Below, piece by piece: positions 13,037-34,865 of a stretch of DNA of 64,000 nt. Location of the stretch: positions 45,055-109,054 of the forward strand of contig CAZOVJ010000002.1 in NCBI GenBank assembly GCA_964583685.1, given 5' to 3'. The notes beneath the pieces are model-generated. The model made no database searches. It was not told the origin of the DNA and saw nothing but the letters and a program-made list of their open reading frames with translations. Position 1 is the first letter of the stretch. The number at the start of each line of letters is the position of its first letter. Both the position numbers and the translations under genes were made by a program. This DNA comes from an uncultured Gammaproteobacteria bacterium. GTDB lineage: Bacteria; Patescibacteriota; Microgenomatia; UBA8517.

Positions 13037-13040
13037 GGCC

Positions 13041-18360: not shown

Positions 18361-19986
18361 TTACGTTTTTTCCTTAATCATGCGTCTGAGTGCTTCTTCT
18401 GAAAACCCAAGTTCGTCAGCTAAAAGAACGCCATGGCTTGCCTGGGCCATACCCGGCACAATTTTATATGAAGGGATTATTTTGCCTTTATCGATTTGAA
18501 ATTCTGTTTGCATATTTTGAATGCCTTCCCATTCGTCAACTGCACTTACAACTTCATGAAGGTGTGTGGCGATATAGGTAGGAGCACCAAGCCTTCTTAA
18601 GGCAGAGATAAGCCGTAGCGATATCTCTATAGCATCCTGGGGCGAGGTGCCTTTTATTGGTTCATCTATAAGGAAAAATGTCCTTTTGCTGGCAAACATA
18701 AGGGCTTCCTTTAAACGTCGTAACTCATCGGCAAATCCACCTTCACCACGCTCAATATCTTCAGGGTGGGTAAAATGTGTGCCAATACCGTCAAACTGGC
18801 GGATATCTGCGGTTGTTGCAGGAATAGGAAAACCACTATGTGCAAGAACGAGTGCAAGTCCAACCGCCTTTATATATACAGATTTCCCCGTATTGTTTGG
18901 ACCTGTAATAATAGTAACATTACTATCTGGAAGAGATACTGCGTCGTTTGGCACCATGCCACGGCGTGAGAGAATTACATCTTCTTGCGTAAGCAGACAG
19001 GGGTTATAAAGACCTTTAATATCAAAGTGTACATCAAGGTTCTCTTGTATTGTTGGGAATAGTACAGGTAAGTTATGTGACCTGAGTACGTCAACATAGC
19101 GGGTAGCCCCCAAGAAAAAATCCGCCTTCCTGCGAAAAGTAAGGAACTCTCCGACAATAGACAAATTGCGCTTAGTGAGAAGATCAAATGCTTCAGCGAA
19201 TTTCTTTTCTCCTTCTTCAGGGTATTCGGAAGTAAACCCAGATAACATCAGGAACTTACACTTTACATCCAATGTTCGAAGGGCCCACCGGACAAGTTCT
19301 TTCCACTGTTCACTCTTAGAGTATTGAATATTTTCAACGCCATAAACTGTATCGAAGTAGTCATATTTCACTCGTAATGTTCCTTGACCAAAATTATCCA
19401 TCGAATCAAGAAGACCCAAAGCGGTTTGGTAGTCTTTATTGTTGACTATAATATTTTGACGCTCGCAAAGCTTATCAAATACAGGTGATTGGCATGGTAT
19501 AGAGTCAACCGCTTTTACGCTACCCGCAAGAGTAGCAAGAATAAGGTAGTCAACGGCGATGAGCTTCTTAACTTCTCTTCTGGATGAAAGATTGATATAT
19601 TGTTTCGGTTCCAGATTTCCAAGAAGCTCAAGGCGTTTTTTAGAAGCATCAACACATGCGTATGAACAAACGATAAAGGCGTCAACGGCCTCTCGGGCAG
19701 ATGGATTTTCCAAAAGCTCACTAATTGCCTTACGGTACGCTTCGCACTCTTTTGAGGGCTTAAAGTTTATAAGTTCGTGAGTCATAAATTCGACAGAATC
19801 CTCAGGTCTATACGGTCGAATGAATGAATTTACGAAAAGCGGCAAATCAATATCCTCTATAGCCCGTTCGACTGTAGGATAGTTTTCTTTTCTGGAAAGA
19901 CCTAAGGGTTCAACCTCTGGTTTTGGCATATCAAAGCTAAGGGGCAAGGCGTAGCAAAAGCAGAAATTATGATGTGAGCATAACAC
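18361..19986 (-). CDS. MutS-domain-V ATPase lacking the mismatch-recognition domain (MutS-related); the true start may be the Met at 19929
   Basis: Walker A ITGPNNTGKSVYIKAVG, plus FLIDEPIKGTSPQD...ATHLHEV, which matches the MutS ABC ATPase core. Confidence 0.65.
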   Translation of the reverse strand: MLCSHHNFCFCYALPLSFDMPKPEVEPLGLSRKENYPTVERAIEDIDLPLFVNSFIRPYRPEDSVEFMTHELINFKPSKECEAYRKAISELLENPSAREAVDAFIVCSYACVDASKKRLELLGNLEPKQYINLSSRREVKKLIAVDYLILATLAGSVKAVDSIPCQSPVFDKLCERQNIIVNNKDYQTALGLLDSMDNFGQGTLRVKYDYFDTVYGVENIQYSKSEQWKELVRWALRTLDVKCKFLMLSGFTSEYPEEGEKKFAEAFDLLTKRNLSIVGEFLTFRRKADFFLGATRYVDVLRSHNLPVLFPTIQENLDVHFDIKGLYNPCLLTQEDVILSRRGMVPNDAVSLPDSNVTIITGPNNTGKSVYIKAVGLALVLAHSGFPIPATTADIRQFDGIGTHFTHPEDIERGEGGFADELRRLKEALMFASKRTFFLIDEPIKGTSPQDAIEISLRLISALRRLGAPTYIATHLHEVVSAVDEWEGIQNMQTEFQIDKGKIIPSYKIVPGMAQASHGVLLADELGFSEEALRRMIKEKT

Positions 19987-20010
19987 AGAATGACTTTTGT
20001 GACAATAATA

Positions 20011-20125
20011 TTTGTTTCATTTGTCTCACTTCGCTTTGCTCAGTGTTATAACATTCAGCCTCGAACGTGATACAATCGGAGTAATCGGTTATGGGCTCGA
20101 AAGGTTCTAGACCGACCTGCTCAGC
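20011..20125 (+). repeat. Island repeat: compact L+R element
   Basis: tttgtttcatttgtctcacttcgctttgctcagtgttataacattcagcctcgaacgtgatacaatcggagtaatcggttatgggctcgaaaggttctagaccgacctgctcagc. Confidence 0.8.
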
Positions 20126-20155
20126 AATATAATCTTTTTGTTATAATACAAATAT

Positions 20156-20659
20156 ATGACACAAACAGATTTACTAAAAAAGATTCAAGATAAACTTAAA
20201 TCCGAAGGGTACGAAGTAAAATCTGATGTTAAATATGGAGATTACACATTTCCCGTAGTTGGTAGGTTGAGTAAGTTTGAGCTTAGCAAGTTTGGTAAAG
20301 CTGATTATTTTGTAGTTGTTGGTGTTGCGCAAGAAGCAAAGCTGTCCGATTTAAGAAGTTTTTCAAGTCAAGCCTATGAGTATGCTGGGAGCAACAGGTC
20401 AACTTCTATGCCCCCAGGCCTAGGCGCGAGCTTTTTTACATTTCCAGTGCTAATTGTAAACAAAGCAGAAGAAAGTGTTGTTGAAGGAGTGAAAAATGGA
20501 ACACCACCCAAACACTGGTCATCTACAGAATTTCCAACAATAGTGGATTTAACTACAGGAAAGATGCACTATTTCACTGGTACTCCAGCTTGGGGTGCAG
20601 CCTATTGGGAAAGTTTCAGAAGGTTAGTAAATAAAGTCATCCCCGTTACAGTTGGTTAA
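20156..20659 (+). CDS. Hypothetical protein (167 aa)
   Basis: ORF. Confidence 0.45.
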   Translation: MTQTDLLKKIQDKLKSEGYEVKSDVKYGDYTFPVVGRLSKFELSKFGKADYFVVVGVAQEAKLSDLRSFSSQAYEYAGSNRSTSMPPGLGASFFTFPVLIVNKAEESVVEGVKNGTPPKHWSSTEFPTIVDLTTGKMHYFTGTPAWGAAYWESFRRLVNKVIPVTVG

Positions 20660-21055
20660 GCCATTCCTTTATTGCTTCTTATGTTGATTCAAGTGTGTTG
20701 TGCAATTTCGTAGTTAATGATATTTGAAATTATAATTTGGTATAACTGCGGGCTGTTGTTGATATAATAAATAAGTTCGAATAGCGTCTATGCTCGCCAG
20801 CAAACTGAGATTTGAACTCCAAAGCTACCCTCCAGCATGATCGGAGAATAATAAATACAGAAAATAATGTAGGAATTTCTTTGTAATAATCGCGAAAAAC
20901 CTTAATTTTATGCAGTTATAATGATATTTTGGTTCGGGACCTATTTCTATCGCACAACATTCGATGGATTAGATATCTACTTAACTCATCTACAATAGAG
21001 AAAATTTTAGAAAAAATGAAATAAGAGCCTATAGCATGGTAAAATCCTCATTACT

Positions 21056-21976
21056 ATGGTTGAAAGAAAGCGTTTCGGTACGATAGAATCTTCCCCAAAA
21101 AGCAGAGGTTCAATCGATCTCGAACTTGGTGAAAGAATTAAGATCCCGTTTACTGGGGCAGAAATCATTTATGCAACTACTATCTCCGGAGATAAGGTGG
21201 TAGTTAAAAAACCACTAAACAACGATCGGGCTAGACATGAATGGGAAGGTCTTAATACAGTAGAATCGACAGGTATTTCTATCCCAAAACCTGTTGCGCT
21301 AATAAGCTATTCAGAGGACCAACTGGCTATTGTATCTAGTTATGTTGAAGGCGATAAATTGTATGATAAACCAAACCCTGATGTAAAAGCAGAAGTTGGA
21401 AGGCAAATTAAAAAAATGCACCAAAGTGCACAGATTGTCGGTGAAGATTGGCTATCTAGTGGTCGAAGCTCATTTCTTTACTATGATAGATATATTTATA
21501 GGTGGTCTAGGGGAAATATCGAAGAGCTGAAAGCAGACGGTAGGACTGCTTCAATATTAGGAGAACTTACCGATGCTGCGGATCAATTCTGTACGCACTC
21601 AGAACCAACATTCAACCACAACGATTTACATGATGGGCAAGTTATCGTAGATGGAAAAGGAAAACCAACAATCATAGATTTTGGAAATTGGACAGAAGAA
21701 ACTTGGATGAACGATATCGGTTATCACTTGTTTCACCTTGTCAGAACTGACAGAGTAGGTGCTGATGACTTTACAAACTTTTTAAACGGATACATGGAAG
21801 GCAAAAAAATGACTGATAAAGAAAAATCAAATTTGGCTTTTTACTTGCTTTTTATATCATCAAGAGCACTAAATTATTTTTACAGAAGACATAGCTCATA
21901 CTTGCCTGTTGCACAAGAGACTCACGAAAAAGTGTTGGCTCATCTTGAAAATGAATCAATCTGGAAAGATTATTAG
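21056..21976 (+). CDS. APH/ChoK-family small-molecule kinase (aminoglycoside-phosphotransferase-like)
   Basis: Catalytic loop HNDLHDGQVIVD and IDFGNW, the Brenner and DFG-like motifs of the APH family. Confidence 0.65.
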   Translation: MVERKRFGTIESSPKSRGSIDLELGERIKIPFTGAEIIYATTISGDKVVVKKPLNNDRARHEWEGLNTVESTGISIPKPVALISYSEDQLAIVSSYVEGDKLYDKPNPDVKAEVGRQIKKMHQSAQIVGEDWLSSGRSSFLYYDRYIYRWSRGNIEELKADGRTASILGELTDAADQFCTHSEPTFNHNDLHDGQVIVDGKGKPTIIDFGNWTEETWMNDIGYHLFHLVRTDRVGADDFTNFLNGYMEGKKMTDKEKSNLAFYLLFISSRALNYFYRRHSSYLPVAQETHEKVLAHLENESIWKDY

Positions 21977-22620
21977 CCCTTTTTTTCTAGAAGCTTAAAA
22001 TGAGAGTAATCGTTGATGTAATTTACTTTCCAGGATTTCCTTTGACTGCTGTAAATCAGGAGAGAGATACCTGTGTAGTTTATTGTTAGTGTTCTAATAA
22101 CTCTTGCCATCATCTCATCCGAATAATTATTCCCTAATATAACCATACTTATAAAACATCTGATAAACACGTCATGCGATACGACCAAAATTCGTTTTCC
22201 TTTATATTTTTTCCTTAAGAAACTTGAGAGTTTATCCGCTCTGCCTAGGACTTCTCTCACTGATTCCTCCTTATTTTTAAACTTCCAATCAAGATTTCTG
22301 TAGTTTGCGTAATATTCTTTAACATATTCTCTTGAAATCTTACTGTTTCTATCTGCTCCATACATTTGAGGTAATTGCATTCTTTCGTGTATGTAATCTA
22401 GAGTCTCTGTTTTAATTTTCAGATTACCAGAGAGAATTTCTGTAGTTTTTCTTGACCTTTCCCATTTACTTGAAAAGATTTTGTCTAATCGGGAGAATCT
22501 GGATCTTTGACTTAAAACCTCTGCTTGTTTTTCACCAAACTTGCCCAGTTTGGAGTCAGGAGTCTGCCACTGGTTTCTGGGGGTTTCGCTACTTGCGTGT
22601 CTAACTAAGAACAATAACAT
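21973..22620 (-). CDS. Histidine phosphatase superfamily protein (PGAM-like), last gene of the RiPP operon
   Basis: LFLVRHASSE (RHG-type) and ILVVSHDVFIR (SHG-type) motifs. Confidence 0.55.
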   Translation of the reverse strand: MLLFLVRHASSETPRNQWQTPDSKLGKFGEKQAEVLSQRSRFSRLDKIFSSKWERSRKTTEILSGNLKIKTETLDYIHERMQLPQMYGADRNSKISREYVKEYYANYRNLDWKFKNKEESVREVLGRADKLSSFLRKKYKGKRILVVSHDVFIRCFISMVILGNNYSDEMMARVIRTLTINYTGISLLIYSSQRKSWKVNYINDYSHFKLLEKKG

Positions 22621-22627
22621 CTTATCC

Positions 22628-23398
22628 TTATTGTACTGTTCCTAGTGCTATAACTCCAATGACGCTTTCATCAATCTTGTCAAAATCGAGAAGTCTGTTT
22701 AAGCCATCGTCAATAAAACCACCTATTGAACAAGCGCCCAACCCCAGCTCGGCAGCTAGTAAGCTAACATTTTGTGCATAGTGACCGTACTCTGTATAAA
22801 TATGCCTCAAACCTCTATCACCATACTTCTCCTCAGTTCTGTCAAATATCGACGATATTACTAGTAAAACAGAAGATTTTCGAATCCAAGGTTGGTTAAA
22901 CTGTTTCATTGTTTCTTTGAAAAAGGGTTTATCATATATCTTTTCCAAAGAATGGCTTTTAACATGATAGTGGTATATTGCTGGCAGCAAATCCTCAACT
23001 TTGAATACAAAAGGATAAATTTCTAATGGGTATCTTGCTCCAGCAGAAGGGTAAAATCGTTTGTCTTTTGTCTTTTTAAACGATAACCTCTTTAACCCGC
23101 ATGAGTAAAACATTAGATTGGAAAAAACAGCGGATTTAATGTTCTTTTTTGTAAATTCTCTTATTGACTCTCTTTTTGTTAATGCATTACTCAAGCTCCA
23201 TTTCGGTTTGGTGGGTGTAGGTAGTAAAACCTGCTCCATCCTGGGATAAGCTTTATAATAAACTTTCTTCCAATGCTCCGGCCAAGTGGAATAAGGTGTT
23301 GTCTTGTATTTACTGAAATCGTCAATCTTTATATTATTATTGAACTCCCTTGATTTAGAGATTTTCAGCGTTTTAATTATTTTTCCTAACTTGTTCAT
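22628..23398 (-). CDS. SagB-type FMN-dependent dehydrogenase (azoline oxidase; nitroreductase fold)
   Basis: RESIREF and PSAGARYPLEIY match the SagB-type dehydrogenase signature. Confidence 0.8.
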   Translation of the reverse strand: MNKLGKIIKTLKISKSREFNNNIKIDDFSKYKTTPYSTWPEHWKKVYYKAYPRMEQVLLPTPTKPKWSLSNALTKRESIREFTKKNIKSAVFSNLMFYSCGLKRLSFKKTKDKRFYPSAGARYPLEIYPFVFKVEDLLPAIYHYHVKSHSLEKIYDKPFFKETMKQFNQPWIRKSSVLLVISSIFDRTEEKYGDRGLRHIYTEYGHYAQNVSLLAAELGLGACSIGGFIDDGLNRLLDFDKIDESVIGVIALGTVQ

Positions 23399-23399
23399 G

Positions 23400-24710
23400 T
23401 TATAAAAATGGGTGAGGATAAGTGTTTAATTTTCCGGTATTTTTGTAGCCCAAACTACTCGGAACGTTGTGTAAACGCTCACCTCCCCGTAGTGGGTATT
23501 TTTCATTAAGATACACAGGTTGCATTCTCGGTATCACAACCTTCACTACTTTAAAAGGAATATCCATAAAGTATTTTGAGGTAATATCTTTGTAATATAT
23601 TTTATAACCCCTATCTTCTAGAGATTTTCTTAATATACGCAGCTGGTTTCGTGCAGAAAGATCCTTGTTTGCGGACTCTATTTTTACAAGATCTAAGTTG
23701 TTAATAAAAAAGTCTAACTTTGAGATCGATTTAGATGGGTACCAAAAAAGCCCTCGATTTTTAATTGTAGAATTTTTAATCAACTCTGTTTTTGAAATAT
23801 CTGATGGATTTTGTATATATGATTCGCGTATCCATGTTCTTGTATGAAATGCTTCATTGATCGAACCGATAATTGCACTTTCTATATCTAAGTGAGATTT
23901 TAAACCTACAGAAACAGCTTTACTAAATCCGGTTTCATCGACCACCACAGATGCAACAGCTGGAATGGGCAAATCTGTTCTTATATCTAAAGAAAATATT
24001 TTCAATCTATATCTCTGAGATATTTCTAATAGTTTCTTAACTTTTTCATTATTAGAAGACAAAAGATCATATCTTTTTGGTTTTAGTTTATTCAGATAAT
24101 AAATCATGAATGCATCTCTCTCAATAACTTCATAAATTCCACCCAATATTGCAGAATCTAGTTTAAAATGACCGGCAGCCCCAGTACTAATTGATGGATA
24201 GATGGCTGGCTCTTTTTTGACGGGACGGTAGGATAGGTAAATTACCTGGCAAGGGACGAGACAGCTCTCGTTAGTGTTCAAAGATTTCATTTCTGTCCAC
24301 CTAAACAATGAATTGTCGTCAATTCGAAAATTCTTATATTCATTTTGATGAAGTTGTTTGTCTGAAAAAAATATGAACTTCTCTGGATTAATGGCATTTT
24401 TATTGATTTTCGAATAGCTACCTACATAACTAACCTCTTTATTAAAAAAGGCGAAATTATCATATCTCTCTATCGCTTCAGCTAAAGCTTTTAGTACTGC
24501 CTCATATTGGGAGAAAAATGACACTCCTGAAGCCTTTGAGTGAAAGTGTGCTCCATCTTGCTTTAAATGTTTATCATTGATTGACGCTGAATAATACCAG
24601 AACTTAGGCTCATCATAATGTTGTCGAACTCTTTCAAAAGATTCGACTAATTTAATTTCTTGCAAGATGGGGCTGAGGTTTTTGATCAAACTGATAAAAT
24701 CTTCATTCAT
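23400..24710 (-). CDS. YcaO-domain cyclodehydratase
   Basis: GVSFFSQYEAVLKALAEAIERY fits the canonical YcaO ATP-binding motif. Confidence 0.85.
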   Translation of the reverse strand: MNEDFISLIKNLSPILQEIKLVESFERVRQHYDEPKFWYYSASINDKHLKQDGAHFHSKASGVSFFSQYEAVLKALAEAIERYDNFAFFNKEVSYVGSYSKINKNAINPEKFIFFSDKQLHQNEYKNFRIDDNSLFRWTEMKSLNTNESCLVPCQVIYLSYRPVKKEPAIYPSISTGAAGHFKLDSAILGGIYEVIERDAFMIYYLNKLKPKRYDLLSSNNEKVKKLLEISQRYRLKIFSLDIRTDLPIPAVASVVVDETGFSKAVSVGLKSHLDIESAIIGSINEAFHTRTWIRESYIQNPSDISKTELIKNSTIKNRGLFWYPSKSISKLDFFINNLDLVKIESANKDLSARNQLRILRKSLEDRGYKIYYKDITSKYFMDIPFKVVKVVIPRMQPVYLNEKYPLRGGERLHNVPSSLGYKNTGKLNTYPHPFL

Positions 24711-24772
24711 AAAAAATACACCTAACCATAGCAGGTTTTGTTAGTCAAGACTATTAATAAATAACTGATTAG

Positions 24773-25009
24773 TTATTTACCTAGTCTATTTTCGGCACAA
24801 TCACAGCCACAGCTCGCACAGCTTGAACAGCTGCCACAACTACCACCACCACAAGCACAGCTTGAACAGTCTCCGCAACTCTGATCACAATCAGAGGCAC
24901 GTACTACACCTTTGGTAGCTTCTGCTTTAATATTTGTGTCGTTTTGCTGGGGCATGGCATCAGCTAAATCTCTCGTTTCTCTTATAACTTCACTCGTCAT
25001 TTTTCTCAC
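24773..25009 (-). CDS. TOMM/LAP-type RiPP precursor peptide (78 aa) with a Cys/Ser/Gly-rich core
   Basis: Core SCGDCSSCACGGGSCGSCSSCASCGCDCAENRLGK; a strong RBS GGAGGGGGTGAG lies 7 nt upstream; it sits immediately upstream of YcaO. Confidence 0.7.
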   Translation of the reverse strand: MRKMTSEVIRETRDLADAMPQQNDTNIKAEATKGVVRASDCDQSCGDCSSCACGGGSCGSCSSCASCGCDCAENRLGK

Positions 25010-25122
25010 CCCCTCCCATAGTTTGATGCGATATTATAACAGCAGTCAAAATATGTCAATTATACTTGAATGTAATATATTCAGCTCACCCATGACTTTT
25101 AAAGACGTTTTTTGAGTACTGT

Positions 25123-25905
25123 TCATTTTTTTACAGTTATCATAAATCTTTTAGAATTAGTTTTTATTCCCTTTCTGGTTTTGTTTTTTTCGATAAATCG
25201 TTCTAGAATCCCAAAATCTTTCTTGCTTTTTCCAAAACCTGGGATTATTGGAGTGTGTTTAAGCAGAAAAATTAAATCTTCTGAAGTTTTGTAATAGACA
25301 GTCGAATTGTATTCTTTCGCTTTGATATTTTTGAACCCAGCTTTTTTCAGACCTTTTATATATTTATTCTTAAGTGTTCCGTCTTTTAATCCATACGCCT
25401 GACCTCTTTTAAAAGCCCGCTTAATGTTAATTTTGTCACCTTCGCTAACTTGTTGTGTGAAAAAGTGACCACCTTTCACTAAGACTCGATAAACCTCTAG
25501 TGGATAAAAGTCACAATGTCTGCTGGTTACAATATCAAAGGAGTTATCAGGGAATTTAAGCTTTACTGAACTCATTCGAAGAAAGCGTACATTTTTATAC
25601 CCTGCTTTGTTAAGGTTTCTTTTTGCAGTGTTAACCATACTGACTGAATGATCTATGCCAGTTATAAACTTCACTTTTTCAGCTAACCTAAGAATTTGTT
25701 CTCCTCCTCCAGTTCCTATATCTAAAAGTTTGTCTGTTGGTTTTGCGATTTTCGCTACTTCCTCAATAAAATTCCATTTTTTACCTTCCTCGATCTTTTT
25801 CAATCGACTGAAGTCCCAACCAATTCGTTTACCAACTCTATTGTAAAATTTCTTGTAATTAACCTGACTCATGTTTTGATTATATCGCAAAGTGGTATCA
25901 TACAT
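25123..25905 (-). CDS. Class I SAM-dependent methyltransferase, first gene of the RiPP operon; the start may be the Met at 25872
   Basis: SAM motif LLDIGTGGGEQ. Confidence 0.75.
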   Translation of the reverse strand: MYDTTLRYNQNMSQVNYKKFYNRVGKRIGWDFSRLKKIEEGKKWNFIEEVAKIAKPTDKLLDIGTGGGEQILRLAEKVKFITGIDHSVSMVNTAKRNLNKAGYKNVRFLRMSSVKLKFPDNSFDIVTSRHCDFYPLEVYRVLVKGGHFFTQQVSEGDKINIKRAFKRGQAYGLKDGTLKNKYIKGLKKAGFKNIKAKEYNSTVYYKTSEDLIFLLKHTPIIPGFGKSKKDFGILERFIEKNKTRKGIKTNSKRFMITVKK

Positions 25906-25907
25906 TT

Positions 25908-26459
25908 ATGAAAGTCTATCTAATCAGGCATGCTATGAGTGTGGATGCAAAAAGAGGAATATCACAAAGAGATAACTCGCCATTGGCTAAAGATGCAATT
26001 AAAGATAAATCTATTAGTTATTATAAAGAATTAGAATTTGATAAAGTATTATGTTCTCCACTGCTTCGAGCGACACAAACAGCAGAAAAACTTTTTGGGA
26101 ATTTTGAAATTGTAGATTACATATATGAATATAAAAGACCTACAGAACTTGATGGAGTTCCAAGAAAAGAAGCTAGAAAATTCTGGGAAAAACATTGGCC
26201 GAAATCGAGTACGGATCCCAACTGGAGCCATGACGGCAGCGAAAGCTTCAATACAATGGTCACAAGGGCTGATAAGTTTTATAAGTTCTTAAAGGGCTTG
26301 AAGTACAAAAGAGTTGCCGTAGTTGGCCATTCTATATTTTTTAGACATTTATTGTCTATACATGCACTTGGTAAGAAAAATTACACAATTGACAAGTATT
26401 ACAAACTTTCCATGTTTATTAAACCCTATCCTCTGCACTACTTAAAGATGGAGCTATAA
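25908..26459 (+). CDS. Histidine phosphatase superfamily protein (PGAM-like), divergent from the RiPP operon
   Basis: YLIRHAMS, SPLLRATQTA and VAVVGHS motifs. Confidence 0.7.
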   Translation: MKVYLIRHAMSVDAKRGISQRDNSPLAKDAIKDKSISYYKELEFDKVLCSPLLRATQTAEKLFGNFEIVDYIYEYKRPTELDGVPRKEARKFWEKHWPKSSTDPNWSHDGSESFNTMVTRADKFYKFLKGLKYKRVAVVGHSIFFRHLLSIHALGKKNYTIDKYYKLSMFIKPYPLHYLKMEL

Positions 26460-26460
26460 G

Positions 26461-26937
26461 ATGACAAGAGTAGCAATAAGAGCTGTCGCAGTTTTAGTAA
26501 AAGACGATAAAGTATTGCTTGTACACAGAACTCGTAATGGAAAAGAATTTTGGGTTTTTCCGGGTGGAGGAGTTGAGGAAGGCGAAAATGTAGAAGAAGC
26601 GGTCGTCCGTGAAGTGGAAGAAGAGGCAAGTACTAAATGTAAAATAGTTAAACTTCTTTATACCCATATCTACTCGAATTTAGGACATAAACAATTCTAT
26701 TACCTATGCGATTACATATCAGGAAACCCAAAATTAGGTGATTTTAATGAATTAGAGACAATGAAAAATGAAGATCAAACTTATGAACCGGGTTGGATAA
26801 AAATTGAAAGTCTATCCAAGAAATTAGTCTATCCTTTGGAAATTCGAGACTGGCTGATTGAAGATTATAGGACGGATTTCAAAAACACACCGAGAGCTGC
26901 AACCTTAAAATCCACCGAGCTTCGTCAAGAGTTATAA
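26461..26937 (+). CDS. NUDIX hydrolase (paralog B of 12560-13036)
   Basis: Nudix box GGGVEEGENVEEAVVREVEEEAST; 158 aa, the same length as paralog A. Confidence 0.8.
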   Translation: MTRVAIRAVAVLVKDDKVLLVHRTRNGKEFWVFPGGGVEEGENVEEAVVREVEEEASTKCKIVKLLYTHIYSNLGHKQFYYLCDYISGNPKLGDFNELETMKNEDQTYEPGWIKIESLSKKLVYPLEIRDWLIEDYRTDFKNTPRAATLKSTELRQEL

Positions 26938-26942
26938 ATTCC

Positions 26943-27229
26943 TTTTTTATACTGTCTCATTTGTCTCATTTAGCCTCAAGTGTGATACACTTTTGACAAG
27001 CGGTTACGGGTCGGGAAGGTTCGAAACCCACCTGCTCAATTATCCCAGAATAGTACGGTAAGTATGGGATCAAGTGGGTCCAGACCCGCATGCTCAATTC
27101 GCTGGGAATAGTACCGTAAGTATGGGATCAAGTGGTGGCAGACCGACCTGCTCAATTAGCTCGGATTAGGAACCCCAGGTTCGATGTCCAGATATGGGAC
27201 TGGAAGGGCCCAGACCGACCTGCTCAGCC
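26943..27229 (+). repeat. Island repeat: L-module followed by four tandem R subunits (59, 59, 71 and 22 bp)
   Basis: ttttttatactgtctcatttgtctcat...ggttcgaaacccacctgctcaatt.../ggtccagacccgcatgctcaatt.../ggcagaccgacctgctcaattagctcggattaggaaccccaggttcgatgtccagatatgggactggaag/ggcccagaccgacctgctcagcc. Confidence 0.85.
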
Positions 27230-27252
27230 AAGACGGGCAGGTGTGTGACCAC

Positions 27253-28074
27253 ATGCTCGTGGTTCACGTTCCGATTGACATGGATAGCACAAAAGATTTC
27301 ATCTCAAAATACATCAAAAATTCTCTAATGATGCTTAGTGACGTGAACTCGTTTATTTTTTTAAGATCAAAAACCGGGCTACCAATCTTAAAAGAATATA
27401 AATTGGGCGGTGGGAATCACCTTTCTCTAATAGGACAATTTGCAATATTGAATTTTATTTCAAAGATTCACTTAGTGCTTAACATAGGTAGAGAGGCTTA
27501 TGTTGGATCCGAGAAAGTTATTAAAATTAAAGGGATCAAGAAAAGCGCTCCATCAGAAATAAAGAAATATGTGCGAGTGCCCAAAATAGGCGAAATAAAC
27601 GAAAAGCAAGCATTTGTGCTTCTTGTTATAAAATATCCGAAAGACATTGGCATACCCAAAATAAAAGATAAAATTGAAAAGATATGGGATGATATCCGAA
27701 ATAAAATCAGCCACCTTGCCACCATAGAAGTAGACAATATTGCAGTGACCTTGCACTATCCCACAATAGAATATCGCCAAATTTTCGAGGAAGCCAAAGA
27801 ATGGACCTTAGCTAAGCCTTTTGTTGTTATCAGTCCGGCTAATAGAGAAAAACACAAAGCTAAAATAAAAAGAGAGGATCCAGATTTGGAAAAGCCACTA
27901 TCAAAAATTATGTGGAATGCAGCCAGTGATATTGTGATTGTAGATTTTTTAAATATCGCCATACAAGAAATTTCCGATTGGATAATTGAAAATATAAATA
28001 AAGGTGTTTATCGCGAAGATAATATATCTGAAACAAAAGAATGGATAAAAATTAACTTTAGGTCAAAGGGTTAA
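27253..28074 (+). CDS. Hypothetical protein. The ORF track starts at 27184 inside the repeat; the first ATG after the repeat is 27253.
   Basis: ORF; Lys/Ile-rich. Confidence 0.45.
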   Translation: MLVVHVPIDMDSTKDFISKYIKNSLMMLSDVNSFIFLRSKTGLPILKEYKLGGGNHLSLIGQFAILNFISKIHLVLNIGREAYVGSEKVIKIKGIKKSAPSEIKKYVRVPKIGEINEKQAFVLLVIKYPKDIGIPKIKDKIEKIWDDIRNKISHLATIEVDNIAVTLHYPTIEYRQIFEEAKEWTLAKPFVVISPANREKHKAKIKREDPDLEKPLSKIMWNAASDIVIVDFLNIAIQEISDWIIENINKGVYREDNISETKEWIKINFRSKG

Positions 28075-28089
28075 TAAAATATATCAGTT

Positions 28090-28560
28090 ATGAGATTGCA
28101 AATATTAGATAAATTAACAGTTGAGTTGAAAAAAGAAATTAAAAGTGAAATTCAAGTTGTTTTTATCTTGTCGAAAATTAGAAAATTATTGGAGTGGGAG
28201 AATGCAAAGGGCAGATATAAGATCCTAAACTTTTATTGCAATTGGGTACTTCACAATAAAATCGACAGGACAGAGCCAGTTGGAAAAATCTTAAGAGATT
28301 TTATTGTTAATAAAGCAGATCGGTATAAACTAGTTTTTCATGAAGAATTTAAAAAAGAATTTAGAAGATTTCTGAAAGATTACAATCTTCCCGTTTTGAG
28401 CCCGATTTCGATGGAAAAATTTAAAAACGAACTAAATAAGGCACTATCAGAGACTCCAGTCGAAATAGTTATAGGAACTCGTTACAGAATCAAACTTGGC
28501 GACCCTGAAGCTGCGAATTTGAATTATGTAATTGTTCCATTGAAGGAACCCAAGACCTAA
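28090..28560 (+). CDS. Hypothetical protein; distant paralog of the 16094-16657 product
   Basis: See the paralog blocks listed for 16094-16657. Confidence 0.5.
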   Translation: MRLQILDKLTVELKKEIKSEIQVVFILSKIRKLLEWENAKGRYKILNFYCNWVLHNKIDRTEPVGKILRDFIVNKADRYKLVFHEEFKKEFRRFLKDYNLPVLSPISMEKFKNELNKALSETPVEIVIGTRYRIKLGDPEAANLNYVIVPLKEPKT

Positions 28561-28573
28561 AGATCCTTTTAGC

Positions 28574-28619
28574 GGGTTCGGGTTATGGGCTCATAAGGGT
28601 CCTGACCTGTAAGCTCAGC
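28574..28619 (+). repeat. Island repeat R-module
   Basis: cgggttatgggctcataagggtcctgacctgtaagctcagc. Confidence 0.65.
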
Positions 28620-28669
28620 AAATATTTCAACTTGGATTCGAACTCTTACTCCATTAAAATATAATAAAT

Positions 28670-29239
28670 ATGAGAAACTCTCCTCCAATAGTTATTCTGT
28701 TTAATGGTCCTCCTGGAGTTGGCAAATCCACTATAGCGAAAGAATTAGCAAAAAAGTCAAGATACGGTGCTTTCACTGATGTTGATAGTTTGAGACACCA
28801 TATATTTGGTGGAGTCGTTAGTGCAAGAAACCAGAAAAAAGACACTAATGAGTTTGAAAGACAAAGACTACTTGCAGCCGATAATGTATCGTGCATGGCA
28901 AATAACTATGTTAGATATGGATTTAACTATTTTATTTCTGACTTGGTTAAGATACCTTCAGTCATTAAGAGGTATAGAAATCATTTTAAAGATATTAATT
29001 TCTATCATGTAATTTTGAGGGCCGACATAGAAGAATTAGAAAAACGTGATGCTTCAAGAACTGGTCTGAAATTGCACGGAAAAGAAGTGATAGAAAAAAT
29101 AAATAAAGAAATGCGTGAGCTCGACTATAGTGACTGTGTAACCATCGACACAACAAACAAAAGTGTTCAAGCAACGGTCAACCTCGTTCTCGAAAAGTTA
29201 GGACTTAATTTTAAAGACGGACAGTTTTACTCTAAGTAA
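28670..29239 (+). CDS. P-loop NTPase / small-molecule kinase-like protein
   Basis: Walker A GPPGVGKSTIAKELAKKS; size and layout similar to CPT/adenylate-kinase-like kinases. Confidence 0.55.
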   Translation: MRNSPPIVILFNGPPGVGKSTIAKELAKKSRYGAFTDVDSLRHHIFGGVVSARNQKKDTNEFERQRLLAADNVSCMANNYVRYGFNYFISDLVKIPSVIKRYRNHFKDINFYHVILRADIEELEKRDASRTGLKLHGKEVIEKINKEMRELDYSDCVTIDTTNKSVQATVNLVLEKLGLNFKDGQFYSK

Positions 29240-29358
29240 TAAAACTACGATATTAGGTCAAATTGAGGATTAACACAGGTTTGCTTGTTGTAAAATAGGT
29301 TCGAAGTCTGCCCCCTCCTTAGGCGGGCAGACATGGTTCGCAGCCTAAACTAAAATAA

Positions 29359-29766
29359 ATGAAGAGAATTTTACATAAACTTGGCTTGAGTCCGGATAAC
29401 TCTATCGTTATCGGCTCGGGTATTCTTGAAGCGCTTGGGATACGGAAAAGTAAAGATATAGATATCGTCGTGAATCAAGAGGCTTATGACTCTTTGAGAA
29501 AATCTGGACAGTTTAATGTCACAGAAAACCACGGCCGCGAAATCCTCCATGATGATAAATTTGAGATTGGAACAAGTTGGACTGTATTGGGCAAAACTTA
29601 CAGATTTAAGGATTTTATTGACGAATCAATAATTGTCGATGGTGTCAGATACATAACAATCAACTTTCTATACAGAGCAAAGAAGAGCTGGATTCGTAGA
29701 AAAAACGCTCGTCAGAAAGATATAGAAGACGTAAAGTTAATTGAGGCGTACCTGAGCAAATTATGA
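29359..29766 (+). CDS. Minimal nucleotidyltransferase (Pol-beta superfamily) domain protein
   Basis: GSGILEALG...SKDIDIVV resembles GSxxxG...SDxDL. Confidence 0.5.
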   Translation: MKRILHKLGLSPDNSIVIGSGILEALGIRKSKDIDIVVNQEAYDSLRKSGQFNVTENHGREILHDDKFEIGTSWTVLGKTYRFKDFIDESIIVDGVRYITINFLYRAKKSWIRRKNARQKDIEDVKLIEAYLSKL

Positions 29767-29775
29767 GAACCAGAA

Positions 29776-29873
29776 GGGTCTAGACCGTCCTGCTCAATTA
29801 GCTCGGATTAGGAACCCCAGGTTCGATGTCCAGATATGGGACTGGAAGGGCCCAGACCGACAAGCTCAGCCAG
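29776..29873 (+). repeat. Island repeat: two R subunits
   Basis: gggtctagaccgtcctgctcaattagctcggattaggaaccccaggttcgatgtccagatatgggactggaagggcccagaccgacaagctcagcc. Confidence 0.8.
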
Positions 29874-29884
29874 CATAAACATAA

Positions 29885-30616
29885 ATGAATATCTCACAGC
29901 AAGTCAATACCATTGGTAACGCGTTTATGGACAGCCTCAAAAAAATCTTGGGTAAAAAACTGTATGGAGTATATATTTACGGAGCCGCAGCTTTCCCAGA
30001 TAAATTACCTACGGGAGATATCGACTTCCATGTCATTTTAACAAGAAGTCTTACAGAAAACGAAAAACTGCAGCTGGAAAAGCTTCACGAGTCTATTGCC
30101 CAAAGATTTCCGCCGCTTGGAGGAGAGCTCGATGGTTATTACATCCTCTTAAAAGATACTGTTAAGAAGGTCCCACCCAAAAGTCAAATGTGGAAACGAG
30201 CAACTGATACTTCATGGGCCCTACATCGTGAGCATATTTTAGCGGGCAGGTGTATTGTTTTTTACGGACCTGATCCAAAAGAGATATACCAGCCTGCCGA
30301 GTGGTCAGAGATTGAAACTGCACTATATGGCGAGTTGGACTTTGTTGAAAAAAATCTTCAAAATTACCCGGATTATTGCATTCTTAACCTCTGTCGCTTG
30401 ATTTATAGCTTTGAGACAAAAGACGTTGTTATTTCAAAAGACAAAGCATCTGAGTGGGCCATTAAAGCCCTACCTCAATGGAAAGAACTTATTAAACTCG
30501 CAAGAAAGTCATACGAACACCGGGCATCGCAGAAAGACAAAGAGTTCATGAGTTCTGAGGTTGGAAAATTTCTTGAATTTGCGAAAAAGCGCGTTCAATC
30601 TCAAACGAAAGAATAA
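29885..30616 (+). CDS. ANT/AadA-like nucleotidyltransferase (nucleotidyltransferase plus DUF4111-like C-terminal domain)
   Basis: GVYIYGAAAFPDKLPTGDIDFHVIL parallels AadA LYGSAVDGGLKPHSDIDLLV; length 243 aa. Confidence 0.55.
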   Translation: MNISQQVNTIGNAFMDSLKKILGKKLYGVYIYGAAAFPDKLPTGDIDFHVILTRSLTENEKLQLEKLHESIAQRFPPLGGELDGYYILLKDTVKKVPPKSQMWKRATDTSWALHREHILAGRCIVFYGPDPKEIYQPAEWSEIETALYGELDFVEKNLQNYPDYCILNLCRLIYSFETKDVVISKDKASEWAIKALPQWKELIKLARKSYEHRASQKDKEFMSSEVGKFLEFAKKRVQSQTKE

Positions 30617-30632
30617 AATTGTATATAGGCCT

Positions 30633-30658
30633 AAAAGTTCTAGACCGATCTGGTCAGC
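30633..30658 (+). repeat. Island repeat R-module (short)
   Basis: aagttctagaccgatctggtcagc. Confidence 0.6.
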
Positions 30659-30678
30659 AAAACAAAGTCTTTTTAAAT

Positions 30679-31428
30679 TTAGGCCTCAATTCTAGAAAAA
30701 AGATAGCTTCCAATTAATAACAAAATAATCCCAACAATACTTAACACCGAGACATCTGTTGTTAACCCAAAATGAGTGGTGCCTACCAAAACCTGCCTAA
30801 GGCCATCGACTCCGTAAGTTAATGGGTTGATATAGGAAACAACTTGGATTAGTCTGGGAACATTATTTAGCGGGAAAATGGCTCCCGATAAGAAAAAGGT
30901 AGGCATAACCAAAAAATTCATAATTAGCTGGAAGCCATGAAAATCTTTCATTAAGGAAGCAATTGCTGTTCCTAAAGCGCTGAATAGAAGGGCAACTAAA
31001 AACATCAAGCAAACTGCGAGAGGAATTATGGTAAGACTTTTAGGCTTAAATCCCACTAATAAAGTCAAGAGGAGGACTATAAGGCCCTGAAAAGTGGCAA
31101 CTGTTGCCCCGCCGAGTACTCTACCTAGAACAACCTCCAATCTTGAGACAGGGGCGACTAAGGTTGCTTTTAGAAAACCAAATTGTCTGTCCCAAATAAG
31201 TTCTATTCCCGAAAAGACAGCCATAAATAAGATTGCCTGACTTATAACACCAGGGGTTAGGAAGTTAATATAATTGCCACCACCGGCTTTTTCAAACACT
31301 GGCCCCAAACCAAAACCCAAAGCCACCAAAAACAAAAGCGGTTGGCCGATAGAGCCGATAATTCGAGATTTTGACCGCCAATATCTCTTAATCTGCCTCA
31401 ACCACATAATGTAAATAATATTAATCAT
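30679..31428 (-). CDS. ABC-2 type transporter permease
   Basis: 6-TM ABC-2 architecture; translationally coupled to the upstream ATPase. Confidence 0.7.
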   Translation of the reverse strand: MINIIYIMWLRQIKRYWRSKSRIIGSIGQPLLFLVALGFGLGPVFEKAGGGNYINFLTPGVISQAILFMAVFSGIELIWDRQFGFLKATLVAPVSRLEVVLGRVLGGATVATFQGLIVLLLTLLVGFKPKSLTIIPLAVCLMFLVALLFSALGTAIASLMKDFHGFQLIMNFLVMPTFFLSGAIFPLNNVPRLIQVVSYINPLTYGVDGLRQVLVGTTHFGLTTDVSVLSIVGIILLLIGSYLFSRIEA

Positions 31429-32243
31429 CTTTGTCTTCTCCTAAATCTATTCATTCTTAGTCTCGCTCTATCTTGTATACCAGCATTCTCTTCTCTAATA
31501 GTTTTACCGGTTAAAGCCAAGTAGGCGGATTCTAAAGTTTTAGTTTTGGTTTCTTTTTTGAGAGATTCCGTTCTTCCTTGGGCAATAATCTTGCCGTGAT
31601 CGATAATAGCGATAGTTTTGGCCATTTTTTCTGCCTCTTCCATATAATGGGTAGTAAAGAAAATAGTTGTTTGATATTTTTTGTTCAACTGTTTTATATG
31701 GTCCCAAATTTTATGTCTGGTTTGGGGGTCAAGTCCCAAAGTTGGCTCGTCTAGAAAAAGTAGTTTTGGATGATGGAGTAAGCCTCTGGCAATCTCGAGC
31801 CTTCTTCTCATCCCCCCAGAATAAGTTTTAACTAAATTATTCTTCCGGTTCCACAAATCAACAATTTCCAAGAGATCCTGGATTCTTTTTTTTCTTGTTT
31901 TTTTAGGAATTTTATACAGGACGCCATGGAATTCCATATTTTCATAAGCAGTCAACTCATCGTCTAAACTAGAATCTTGGAAAACAATTCCGAAGGACTT
32001 TCTCACCTCGTCTTGCTGGCTTAACGGGTCAAAACCGTTGACTAGCATCTGTCCTTCTGTTGACCTCAAAAGGGTAGTCAACATTCTGATAGTAGTTGTT
32101 TTACCAGCGCCATTGGGTCCAAGAAAGGCAAATATATCTCCTTTTTTTACTTCAAAAGAAATATTGTCAACGGCAACAAGACTATTGAACCTCCTGGTTA
32201 AGCTGTTAACCTTAATGATTGGCTGTTGTTTTTTATCAGACAT
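31425..32243 (-). CDS. ABC transporter ATP-binding protein. The start is taken at MSDKKQQPII (32243); the ORF track extends it to 32333.
   Basis: Walker A GPNGAGKTT and LSGG-type signature YSGGMRRR. Confidence 0.75.
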   Translation of the reverse strand: MSDKKQQPIIKVNSLTRRFNSLVAVDNISFEVKKGDIFAFLGPNGAGKTTTIRMLTTLLRSTEGQMLVNGFDPLSQQDEVRKSFGIVFQDSSLDDELTAYENMEFHGVLYKIPKKTRKKRIQDLLEIVDLWNRKNNLVKTYSGGMRRRLEIARGLLHHPKLLFLDEPTLGLDPQTRHKIWDHIKQLNKKYQTTIFFTTHYMEEAEKMAKTIAIIDHGKIIAQGRTESLKKETKTKTLESAYLALTGKTIREENAGIQDRARLRMNRFRRRQR

Positions 32244-32364
32244 ATTTTCTATAGAGAACGTTATAATTATAGAAGCAGGTTCTAGCTTTGTCCACAGTTC
32301 GCAGCAAAGAAATTTGGCCTTGAAAATTATCATCTAACTAGGCTGTTCGAACCCTCAGGATGTT

Positions 32365-33147
32365 ATGAAAAATTTAAGAAAATATGGAAAAGCCCCTTAC
32401 AACATTGTTGTTGTTCATGGAGGTCCTGGTGCACTTGGAGAAATGGCCCCTGTAGCTAGACATCTATCAAAGAAACAAGGAGTATTGGAACCGCTTCAAA
32501 CAAGGAATTCTATTAAAGAACAAGTTCTAGAACTCAAAACCATCATTGAAAAAAATGCCCAATTGCCAGTTACGCTTATTGGTTGGTCATGGGGTGCTTG
32601 GTTAAGTCTTATACTAACAGCAAAATATCCAAAATTAGTAAAGAAATTAATTCTCGTTAGCAGTGGTCCATTTGAGGTCAAATATGCAAAGCGGATAATG
32701 AATACTAGAATGAGCAGGCTTACAGAAGAAAAAAGAAAAAAGCTAAATTCTTTATTCGCCAATTTAGAAGATTTAAAAAAGAATGAGCAAAAATCTGCAT
32801 TTGATGAAATTGGAAGACTAATAAACAAAGCTGACTCTTTTAGTCTTATTCCCTATAAGAATGAAGTAATAAAAACACAGCCAGAAATTTATGAAAGAGT
32901 ATGGAGTGAGGCAAGTAAATTACGAAAAAATGGTAGTTTACTTGGGCTGGGAAAAAATATTCGCTGTTCAGTAGTAGCCATTCACGGAGATTTTGACCCG
33001 CATCCTGCAGAAGGGGTTGAGCTACCCTTGAAAAAAGTAATAAAAAACTTCCGATTTATTTTGCTGAATAAATGCGGACACCATCCTTGGTATGAAAGGT
33101 ATACGAAAGACGAATTTTATAGCCTTTTAATAAAAGAGGTGTCCTGA
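32365..33147 (+). CDS. Alpha/beta hydrolase (prolyl-aminopeptidase-like)
   Basis: HGGPG oxyanion motif and nucleophile elbow GWSWG. Confidence 0.65.
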   Translation: MKNLRKYGKAPYNIVVVHGGPGALGEMAPVARHLSKKQGVLEPLQTRNSIKEQVLELKTIIEKNAQLPVTLIGWSWGAWLSLILTAKYPKLVKKLILVSSGPFEVKYAKRIMNTRMSRLTEEKRKKLNSLFANLEDLKKNEQKSAFDEIGRLINKADSFSLIPYKNEVIKTQPEIYERVWSEASKLRKNGSLLGLGKNIRCSVVAIHGDFDPHPAEGVELPLKKVIKNFRFILLNKCGHHPWYERYTKDEFYSLLIKEVS

Positions 33148-33353
33148 ATTAAAAACTATAATTAAAGGCAGGAATTTCAATAAAATTTGAAATAAAATAG
33201 GTTCGATCAAAAAATAGCCCAAGTCAAGAAAAAAAGGGGCAGGCCGTGTGTGTAGTTATTGGTAGCGCTAGTGGATATAAAGAAGCGGTCGGTCAATGGT
33301 TTCCGCCCGAGCCTGATACGAAGGATGTTGAAGTAAAATGCGGTGTTCTAGAG

Positions 33354-33467
33354 TAATTTTATAAGGATAGAAAGGGACTAGACCGGGAAGCTCAATTAGC
33401 TCGGATTAGGAACCCCAGGTTCGATGTCCAGATATGGGACTGGAAGGGCCCAGACCGACAAGCTCAG
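33354..33467 (+). repeat. Island repeat: R-module with two subunits
   Basis: ttataaggatagaaagggactagaccgggaagctcaattagctcggattaggaaccccaggttcgatgtccagatatgggactggaagggcccagaccgacaagctcag. Confidence 0.8.
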
Positions 33468-33494
33468 TCAGTTACAAAACAGATTCCATAAATA

Positions 33495-33932
33495 ATGAAT
33501 AAAAAAATTGCTGTTTTAATATTTATTGACCATGAAGGAAACTTACTCCTTCAGGAAAGGGGTAATTATTCAAAGGCGGGAGAAAAGCATGGCTATTTTG
33601 GGGGAAACATTGAAAATGGAGAAAAACCCAAAGACGCATTAATAAGGGAGTTGAAAGAAGAATTGGGCTATATTCCTGATAATATTAAGTTCTGGAAAAA
33701 AGTTGATTTTTTGTGCACAGCAGAAGGAAAGTATAATAATTTCGGAGTTACTATTTATATATTTATTAGCCCTTTAACCAAAAAATTGGAGGATATTAAA
33801 GTATATGAGGGTGAAGACAAGATAATGACTACTCTTGACGAAGAGTTAAAAAGTCATAATATCATTGGTGGATACGAAATTGTTCTCAAGGAAATAAAAA
33901 ACCATTTTGCTGAGGTGTTGAAGTTGCTTTAA
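33495..33932 (+). CDS. NUDIX hydrolase (third copy, divergent)
   Basis: Nudix box GGNIENGEKPKDALIRELKEELG. Confidence 0.75.
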   Translation: MNKKIAVLIFIDHEGNLLLQERGNYSKAGEKHGYFGGNIENGEKPKDALIRELKEELGYIPDNIKFWKKVDFLCTAEGKYNNFGVTIYIFISPLTKKLEDIKVYEGEDKIMTTLDEELKSHNIIGGYEIVLKEIKNHFAEVLKLL

Positions 33933-33942
33933 AGTTATAGGC

Positions 33943-33980
33943 AATACAGATAACGAGGTTCTAGACTAACCTGCTACCAA
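33943..33980 (+). repeat. Island repeat R-module (degenerate)
   Basis: gttataggcaatacagataacgaggttctagactaacctgctacc. Confidence 0.6.
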
Positions 33981-34019
33981 TCGTTGTGTCTCCATCAGAT
34001 ATAATTAATTTTTCCTTTC

Positions 34020-34298
34020 TTATTTCCTTATTCTTTTTATCTCTTTACTGCTGTATCCTGGACCCATCCACGTCATTATATCGATAGGAACACCATTTGT
34101 AACTACTTTGTCAGCGCAATGATCGCAAAATGGCAATCTATCTCCACAACAAACTACCGTACAACCCTGCCTTACTTCGTTTAAAGGCAATCCGTTCCTC
34201 GAACACCTCCACTGATTATCTAAAATTATGGGGTGATTTACATCAATGGCACCTGGAATCTCTCCCTCTCCACCAAGATTTATAACTATCTCTTTCAT
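34020..34298 (-). CDS. Hypothetical Cys-rich small protein (92 aa)
   Basis: ORF; CCGDRLPFCDHC cysteine cluster. Confidence 0.35.
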   Translation of the reverse strand: MKEIVINLGGEGEIPGAIDVNHPIILDNQWRCSRNGLPLNEVRQGCTVVCCGDRLPFCDHCADKVVTNGVPIDIMTWMGPGYSSKEIKRIRK

Positions 34299-34409
34299 TG
34301 CGGCAATTATATCCTATAGATTTAATGATAACAAGCACTTTATTCTAGAATCTTGTTTAATTTGCCGTTTTTACCTTATAGTAGTTTTAAAGAGGAAGGA
34401 TTCCTTTTA

Positions 34410-34448
34410 AGTTAAAATGACAGAAGGGTTCCAGACCGACATGCTCAG
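34410..34448 (+). repeat. Island repeat R-module
   Basis: gttaaaatgacagaagggttccagaccgacatgctcagc. Confidence 0.65.
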
Positions 34449-34860: not shown

Positions 34861-34865
34861 CTACA

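Follow-up and report, generated by a model that had tools for sequence, protein, structure and literature searches.

The tandem repeat at positions 26940-27229 of the window (the 64-kb stretch of contig CAZOVJ010000002.1 analyzed here) is made of short units that, on a slight balance of probability, are attachment sites carrying no cargo, that is, empty cassettes or spare landing sites within a recombination-built array anchored at a tRNA-Gln(CUG) gene. This interpretation follows from the fact that the units share with the gene cassettes around them both the junction at which these begin and a site of about 40 nucleotides (nt), but contain no gene. An earlier reading, made from the letters of the stretch alone (hereafter the sequence-only reading), had described four tandem subunits of 59-71 bp with covarying internal stems and had mentioned arrays of empty recombination sites as a secondary idea. 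It is the secondary idea that our study favors, on other evidence: the common ...GCTCA/ junction (the slash marks the boundary here and below), the ~40-nt site, the presence or absence of units at one and the same junction in related loci, and the linkage to tRNA-Gln and to a family of large serine recombinases (LSRs).

Between the stop codon of the NUDIX-B gene (26937) and the next gene, a 21-nt core, GGKYCYAGACCGACCTGCTCA, is found at 27018-27038, 27076-27096, 27134-27154 and 27206-27226. The earlier count of four thus holds for the cores, but when the sequence is cut after ...GCTCA the cores delimit three units, of 58, 58 and 72 nt. The tandem architecture itself is borne out by these four cores and by two further results. 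A 19-mer pattern allowing up to three mismatches gave seven matches in the window and none in 100 shuffles, and Tandem Repeats Finder (TRF) reported a period of 58 with 2.5 copies and 80% matches at 27026-27169, as well as a period of 74 at 16715-16852. Each unit consists of a leader of 20-35 nt followed by the 40-nt site; AATT stands directly 3' of cores 1-3, and GCC, the start of the next cassette, 3' of core 4.

The units collected across contigs are of two discrete but homologous types (alignment of A against B, p<0.001), type B of 58 nt and type A of 72-74 nt, with a mean column identity of 79-82% across many unrelated contigs. Since the two adjacent B units of the window are only 81% identical to each other, we regard them as old distinct subtypes and not as recent local duplicates. 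Copying of such units does happen, as indicated by three near-identical A copies in the window: those at 29797 and 33395 are identical, and the one at 27155 differs from them at two adjacent bases. Small palindromes, ATCCnGGAT and GGTCTAGACC, lie within the units, the latter being the only palindrome returned by an inverted-repeat search with exact 6-nt seeds. The other places at which the sequence-only reading had located the repeat (16721-16860, 18203-18282 and 29776-29873) are real, and a further copy at 33395-33466 had been missed (Table 1).

Conserved site, junctions and recombinase linkage

The site in which the units end is widespread. Conservation among 229 distinct copies covers ~40 nt, beginning at GTTATGGG and ending in GCTCAGC, and the consensus of the cassette-end site is GTTATGGG-N6-AAGG-GGKYCYAGACCGACCTGCTCA. 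The exact core was identified in four species-representative genomes, two of them named as Woesebacteria/Patescibacteria and two being metagenome-assembled genomes of ~0.6 Mb, and the core is present in more than 120 metagenome contigs, in which the same A and B units recur. In nearly all loci the core arrays are co-oriented; in the window, all cores are on the + strand across 31 kb, beginning after tRNA-Gln. A tRNA-Gln gene, mostly with the CUG anticodon, heads the co-oriented array in ~20 loci, and a full proximal tRNA co-oriented with the repeats is found in the window, in those ~20 loci and also in L128-L132, L135 and L137 (L numbers denote related loci). The core (GGTTCTAGACCGACCTGCTCAGC) is as long as the 3' end of tRNA-Gln (GGTTCGAATCCCTGCCCCGCAGC), agrees with it at 14 of 23 positions and has the same terminal CAGC; the last ~21 nt of the ~40-nt site match the tRNA in register, from the GGTTC of the T-arm to the terminal CAGC. 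The repeats are nevertheless not true copies of the 3' part of the resident tRNA, as the identity is limited to 14/23 and neither ARAGORN nor Rfam calls any tRNA likeness in them. The tRNA-Gln(CUG) gene is the likely chromosomal attachment site.

Comparisons between loci define the junctions. The A and B units begin immediately 3' of ...GCTCA, and the gene cassettes have the identical ...GCTCA/ boundary. The units recur in differing orders in many contigs, always between the terminal core of one cassette and the start of the next. An orthologous NUDIX cassette in L069 (71% amino-acid identity) reads long-module core/D-box, where the window reads long-module core/B/B/A/D-box, and L094 (no unit) and L076 (one B unit) repeat this pattern of presence and absence at the junction. 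The sequence upstream of the junction differs as well: one cassette has a core before it in the window and differing tRNA-3'-like sequences in L119 and L013, and another has a genuine tRNA-Gln 3' fragment before it in L088, the only locus in which such a fragment was seen; in both cassettes, homology begins at CAGC.

Several features of these boundaries deserve description in their own right. The D-box, GCCAAGACGGGCAcccTAGTGACCnnnGTCTCTAGAAAAGCCC, opens many cassettes after ...GCTCA (27227-27268 and 13301-13325 in the window; L128, L131, L137, L030, L109 and L112), lies directly 3' of tRNA-Gln in several genomes and has a small palindrome of its own, GGGCAC..GTGACC. Some junctions are non-core, with the tRNA-3'-end-like sequence GGTTCGAA...CAGC at the same position (29290-29345 in the window; L119 and L013), and one non-core junction of the window has an 8-bp inverted repeat, GTCTGCCC...GGGCAGAC. 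Many cassettes end in a longer module of ~100 nt, represented here by 26940-27038. It often opens with the inverted repeat TGAGACA-N12-TGTCTCA around a CCTTTTTATA loop (26940-26975 in the window; position 20237 of L128 and 1854 of L131), after which come the direct repeat TGTCTCATT TGTCTCATT and then GTG-ATA-CAC; these are candidate protein-binding motifs and extend well beyond a normal serine-recombinase half-site.

Clustering of the open reading frames (ORFs) of the loci yielded one recombinase family, an LSR of ~440 amino acids (aa) with the domains Resolvase, Recombinase and Zn_ribbon_recom, whose gene is located 100-170 nt from cores in L001, L039/L092 and L070. The family to which it belongs is very large, with members named as Woesebacteria, Woykebacteria and Patescibacteria, and the closest solved relatives of the protein in the PDB are the TP901-1 and SPbeta integrases (E~1e-9). 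Seven further LSR contexts were retrieved by protein identity alone, and in all seven a junction follows the 3' end of the recombinase gene at a distance of 0.1-6 kb and joins tRNA-Gln (in four cases), a core or an end resembling that of a tRNA to the D-box, CAAGACGGGCA...GTGACC...TTCAC. This D-box junction was read directly in six of the seven and was deduced in L138 from a long module and core abutting the 3' end of the gene. L128, L131 and L137 have tRNA-Gln/D-box junctions. A complete 12.4-kb element is present in L131, with core/D-box at one side and a long module and core at the other; its cargo comprises a restriction-modification system, a ParB-methylase, repressors and the recombinase. 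The gene order of the right flank of the window (GluRS, S11 peptidase and a class II aminoacyl-tRNA synthetase) is shared by L131 and L135, and GCA_040960095.1 is a close relative with such synteny. Among properties of LSR-type sites, physical linkage to an LSR gene is found in the related loci and not in the window, and the host site lies in a conserved gene, the tRNA 3' end and the core having the terminal CAGC in common, with a putative crossover dinucleotide within it.

Two observations on these loci stand apart. The tRNA-Gln of L135 points away from the GluRS/S11-peptidase block, whereas that of the window points towards it from 38 kb off, which implies that the whole island region has been inverted or rearranged between relatives. 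In L136, a recombinase-bearing element (2770-9787) appears to carry a complete his operon (hisG, D, C, B, H, A, F, IE), located between a tRNA-like/D-box junction and a distal core.

In the mechanism that we propose, strand exchange by the LSR would take place at the CA of ...GCTCA / ...CGCA(GC) or beside it. The element-side site would be formed by the core as its left arm and, judging from its position, the D-box as its right arm, and cassettes would retain the left arm distally. In related genomes, elements with the LSR lie immediately 3' of tRNA-Gln or a core, open with a D-box and close with a long module and a core. Serial integrations and core-core exchanges would build and shuffle the array, and the site-only units would be carried along or left behind. 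The core and the leader of an A or B unit may together form an imperfect palindrome centered on the junction, as expected of a site bound by a recombinase dimer. At the core/A and core/B junctions, the right-hand side has an inverted GGTTCTAGACC-like arm at a distance of 19-20 nt, which mirrors the 19 nt plus CA of the left-hand side. The inverted arm matches at 7-8 of 11 positions, which is suggestive only (P(>=8) = 0.0016 per offset in a null set of other junctions), and a stricter dyad test with position weight matrices was weak, with no score above the 99th percentile. Because this symmetry resembles a dimer-bound crossover site, the units may be spare attB-like sites.

Several points weigh against this interpretation. 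Units of 58-72 bp cannot plausibly circularize, which precludes solo movement by the proposed mechanism; they would therefore have to spread by hitch-hiking with neighbors or by core-core exchange. The strong conservation of the unit leaders is not accounted for. The dyad symmetry was seen post hoc and depends in effect on one or two independent sequence families; A and B are not independent of each other. On the left side of the junction ~40 nt are conserved, on its right side usually little, most core/cassette junctions having no conserved right half, which is atypical of textbook LSR sites. No variation in copy number was detected in the few available assemblies (an exact-protein look-up with three usable contigs); the B-B-A order is present in two assemblies besides the window, one 100% identical over 4.9 kb and one independent, and two short-read contigs break at the repeat. 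Finally, tblastn detected no LSR of the family in the 64-kb window, and for this reason activity at this locus is unproven.

Hairpin selection and other explanations

The main idea of the sequence-only reading was that selection acts on a hairpin and not on the primary sequence, so that the units would be folded single-strand sites or structured RNA (an attC-like hairpin, a small RNA or a terminator). Our analyses make this quite improbable. The GTCC-loop-GGAC stem is confined to type A, to which only one of the three units here belongs (27186-27189 paired with 27197-27200). In a set of 17 distinct A copies drawn from 10 contigs, two of the four stem pairs are invariant, one varies only to G-U, and the remaining pair shows one compensatory A-U, two G-U and two broken cases. 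The stem is the sole consensus helix that RNAalifold predicts for type A, with 95.6% of the helix cells paired, and this, together with the compensatory A-U case and a conservation restricted to one side of the junction, as in attC, is what speaks for a folded site. However, when the aligned subunits were scored with RNAalifold and pair counts, the covariation term of type A was -0.09 kcal/mol, and shuffling of partners gives equal pairing. Type B shows no compensatory change in nine candidate pairs, and all its measures are the same as those of shuffles. The equivalent positions in ~200 other site copies pair at chance level, and the top pairs of a mutual-information analysis with average product correction over 234 sites are subfamily register shifts, not Watson-Crick pairs.

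Thermodynamic analyses agree with these counts. Single units fold no better than shuffled sequence on either strand (z of the minimum free energy between -1.5 and +1.1), and 40 distinct copies of the long module have no consensus fold (RNAalifold, -1.08 kcal/mol). Rfam reports nothing relevant in a gathering scan of the window or in a scan of 26850-27350 at E<=10, and the array of units contains neither a T-tract nor a terminator-like site, a sigma-70-like promoter or RYYYAAC/GTTRRRY boxes; a tyrosine recombinase was likewise undetected in the Pfam and catalytic-motif searches described below. With compensation nearly absent and folding at chance level, the stem is best described as a short palindrome conserved in one type of unit, and not as a product of structural selection; it is the primary sequence that is conserved. 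The repeats should be annotated as attachment-site units in preference to structured RNA. A tRNA-like or tmRNA-like RNA was also considered for the units and rejected: ARAGORN calls only tRNA-Gln, Rfam has no match at E<=10, and manual T-arm and acceptor pairings failed.

It is unlikely, although deserving of attention, that the units are inert scars with no present role as sites, either decayed cassettes whose cargo was deleted or local duplications for which the 21-40-nt cores served as sites of unequal crossing-over or template switching. Units too short to move on their own would fit such an origin, and so would intragenomic core-core copying as the source of the near-identical A copies at 27155, 29797 and 33395, the constant copy number in the few assemblies available and the degenerate copies at 16807-16880 and 18207-18280. 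Neutral scars, however, are not expected to hold a fixed length and ~80% identity across unrelated contigs, as the A and B types and the B subtypes do, and the neighboring units of the window are old distinct subtypes (the B pair at 81% identity) instead of recent duplicates. We consider it very improbable that the units are miniature non-autonomous transposons (similar to miniature inverted-repeat transposable elements, MITEs, or palindrome-associated transposable elements, PATEs, and mobilized by an HUH or other transposase) inserting 3' of GCTCA, with a tandem pile-up arising because the units themselves end in GCTCA. This would explain their discrete sizes, precise ...GCTCA/ boundaries, co-orientation, variable order and number, and intragenomic spread. 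Nevertheless, the units were found only in these arrays, where they follow a core or a degenerate core end, and at no other GCTCA site, they have no paired hairpins at their termini, no linked transposase family emerged from Pfam and ad-hoc checks of the window and loci, and a MITE model leaves the shared boundaries and 3' site of the gene cassettes unexplained. Least probable of all, and highly improbable in our view, is a regulatory protein-binding array (an insulator, operator or nucleoid-protein site) unrelated to recombination. The strong conservation of a primary sequence with palindromes (ATCCnGGAT and GGTCTAGACC) and the regular 58/72-nt spacing would suit such a function, but there is no sigma-70-like promoter within the array, and a site that marks cassette boundaries and the ends of recombinase elements goes beyond regulation alone.

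Other candidates were tried and dropped. Repetitive extragenic palindromes, bacterial interspersed mosaic elements (REP/BIME) and IS200-IS605 miniatures were rejected, as the units are co-oriented, confined to tRNA-Gln arrays and devoid of convincing hairpins; no HUH protein (TnpA/RAYT) was present among the Pfam-scanned ORFs, in a search that was not exhaustive. A phage origin was discarded because three matches to viral contigs are due to chance, in coding DNA of 69% GC. Homology between the type-A leader and the D-box, plausible by eye, had p = 0.35.

Array content and features of the window

The attachment-site units are embedded in an array whose cargo genes, according to Pfam, include four NUDIX genes, TspO, APH, an AadA-like gene, a YcaO/nitroreductase cluster, an ABC-2 exporter and an alpha/beta hydrolase. 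The positions of the array, the units and their related copies are given in Table 1. The gene that follows the D-box likely starts at the ATG at 27280 and not at 27184; the gene call in L139 begins at the position equivalent to 27280.

Table 1. Anchor, array, units and related copies in the window.
Feature	Positions	Strand	Evidence or remark
tRNA-Gln(CUG), proximal anchor of the array, 3' end GGTTCGAATCCCTGCCCCGCAGC	6813..6884	+	Rfam, 62.9 bits; ARAGORN
Cassette array, ~24 core sites between accessory genes	7529..37858	+	Core positions; Pfam
Core 16712-16732, type-A unit 16733-16806 and degenerate type-A unit 16807-16880	16712..16880	+	
Isolated type-A unit after a degenerate core end (..AAGCTCA)	18207..18280	+	
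Long (L) terminal module of the NUDIX-B cassette, TTTTTATACTGTCTCATTTGTCTCATTTAGCC..GTGATACAC..GGTTACGGG.. and core 27018-27038	26940..27038	+	40 distinct copies aligned; same module in the L069 ortholog
Subunit 1, type B, 58 nt, ATTATCCCAGAATAGTACGGTAAGTATGGGATCAAGT and core	27039..27096	+	Sequence, TRF, unit alignment
Subunit 2, type B, 58 nt, ATTCGCTGGG subtype, also in L043, L004 and L111	27097..27154	+	
Subunit 3, type A, 72 nt, 4-bp stem 27186-27189/27197-27200, terminal core 27206-27226	27155..27226	+	
D-box (GCCAAGACGGGCAGGTGTGTGACC...TTCACG), conserved start of the next cassette	27227..27268	+	Motif follows 15 cores; also at tRNA-Gln or cores beside recombinase elements
Core 29776-29796 of the preceding cassette and type-A unit 29797-29868, differing from the 27155 unit near the core 3' end (GACAAGCTCA for GACCTGCTCA)	29776..29868	+	
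Core 33374-33394 and type-A unit 33395-33466, with the same two-base difference from the 27155 unit	33374..33466	+	Absent from the sequence-only reading

Within the array, a minus-strand cluster at 22628-25009 comprises a YcaO cyclodehydratase (23400-24710), a nitroreductase-family protein (22628-23398) and an adjoining 78-aa ORF (24773-25009) with a Cys/Ser-rich tail, ...SCGDCSSCACGGGSCGSCSSCASCGCDC...; a methyltransferase lies nearby (25123-25905). The cluster looks like one for a thiazole/oxazole-type ribosomally synthesized and post-translationally modified peptide (RiPP), with its precursor, inside the cassette array of a probable bacterium of the Candidate Phyla Radiation (CPR). Just past the last core, a gene of the metallo-beta-lactamase fold is split over two overlapping ORFs (37932-38219 and 38212-38760), probably by a frameshift or as a pseudogene. 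An RNase P RNA of class A on the minus strand (58190-58573) scores 113.9 bits, barely above its gathering score of 100, which suggests that it is divergent.

Relation to known systems and meaning for the CPR

Elements of the staphylococcal cassette chromosome (SCC) are among the closest points of comparison. Tandem composite islands and pseudo-SCC elements without ccr exist among them. In SCCmec and the Enterococcus cassette chromosome, LSRs insert elements of variable cargo at the 3' end of one conserved host gene; the att sites of SCC elements are direct repeats of ~50 bp containing inverted repeats, and remnants lacking a recombinase persist beside the target (PMC6222049). As in SCC, in which Ccr uses an attB in the 3' end of rlmH, a conserved half-site lies on the host-gene side here. 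The present system differs in that its target is a tRNA gene instead of rlmH, one gene encodes its recombinase, which belongs to another, CPR-specific LSR family, its array is split much more finely into many single-gene cassettes, and its cassettes each end in a conserved module of 40-100 nt; moreover, SCC elements are not known to have tandem site-only units of 58-72 nt.

The tycheposon islands of Prochlorococcus resemble the locus in another respect. They are located next to tRNA genes in streamlined genomes, where serial integrations push older elements inward, partial tRNA copies separate the elements and scatter through the islands, and the cargo is adaptive; tyrosine recombinases are found in 910 of 937, and the repeats are true partial tRNAs (bioRxiv 10.1101/2020.12.28.424599). 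Both systems have an island anchored at a tRNA and repeats of tRNA-end type between elements, and they would share serial integration, but the repeat described here is a conserved look-alike of the tRNA 3' end (14/23), the linked enzyme is an LSR and the host belongs to the CPR.

The likeness to integrons extends to co-oriented, mostly single-gene cassettes that each end in a recombination site, a fixed proximal entry, typical cargo (NUDIX, nucleotidyltransferase and phosphotransferase genes), conservation limited to the cassette 3' side of the crossover, and conceivable empty cassettes. In contrast to integrons, no IntI and no R''/R' boxes were found, the sequence and not the structure is conserved, and a tRNA gene takes the place of attI. 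We detected no Phage_integrase by Pfam in 50 ORFs of the window (0.7-50 kb), and a crude regular expression for the catalytic motif of tyrosine recombinases gave no match in 893 ORFs of the loci. An identity of the sites with integron attC was rejected: around the boundaries ...CTGCTCA/ATT or ...CTGCTCA/GC(A/C), RYYYAAC/GTTRRRY boxes are present on neither strand, there is no long imperfect hairpin (z ~0 on both strands), and sequence identity is 65-82%. Our search of the literature on integrons, cassettes and serine recombinases in Patescibacteria, whose coverage was incomplete and which is weak evidence of novelty, found no description of the locus. The system, together with the putative mechanism outlined above, looks undescribed for the CPR. 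It departs from SCC, tycheposons and integrons in its tRNA-Gln target, its enzyme family, the conserved site that mimics a tRNA end and the tandem site-only units.

We put forward tentatively, and with considerable doubt, a broader proposal: that CPR bacteria (Patescibacteria) widely practice an integron-like gene capture with an LSR instead of IntI, in which the 3' end of tRNA-Gln would be the entry, cassettes would bear modules mimicking the tRNA end, and the 58/72-nt units would be functional, attB-like palindromic landing pads that boost capture and reshuffling. CPR genomes are tiny, and their gain and loss of genes is poorly understood. The tRNA-Gln locus seems to collect a large share of CPR accessory genes as small modules, each with one conserved terminal site, including resistance-type enzymes, NUDIX hydrolases, a RiPP cluster, restriction and defense systems and, in one locus, the whole his operon. 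If a single recombinase family acts at this locus, it would offer a concrete and testable mechanism of horizontal gene flow in the CPR, together with a sequence tag for locating the flexible genome in metagenomes and a new serine-integrase family whose tRNA target is defined.

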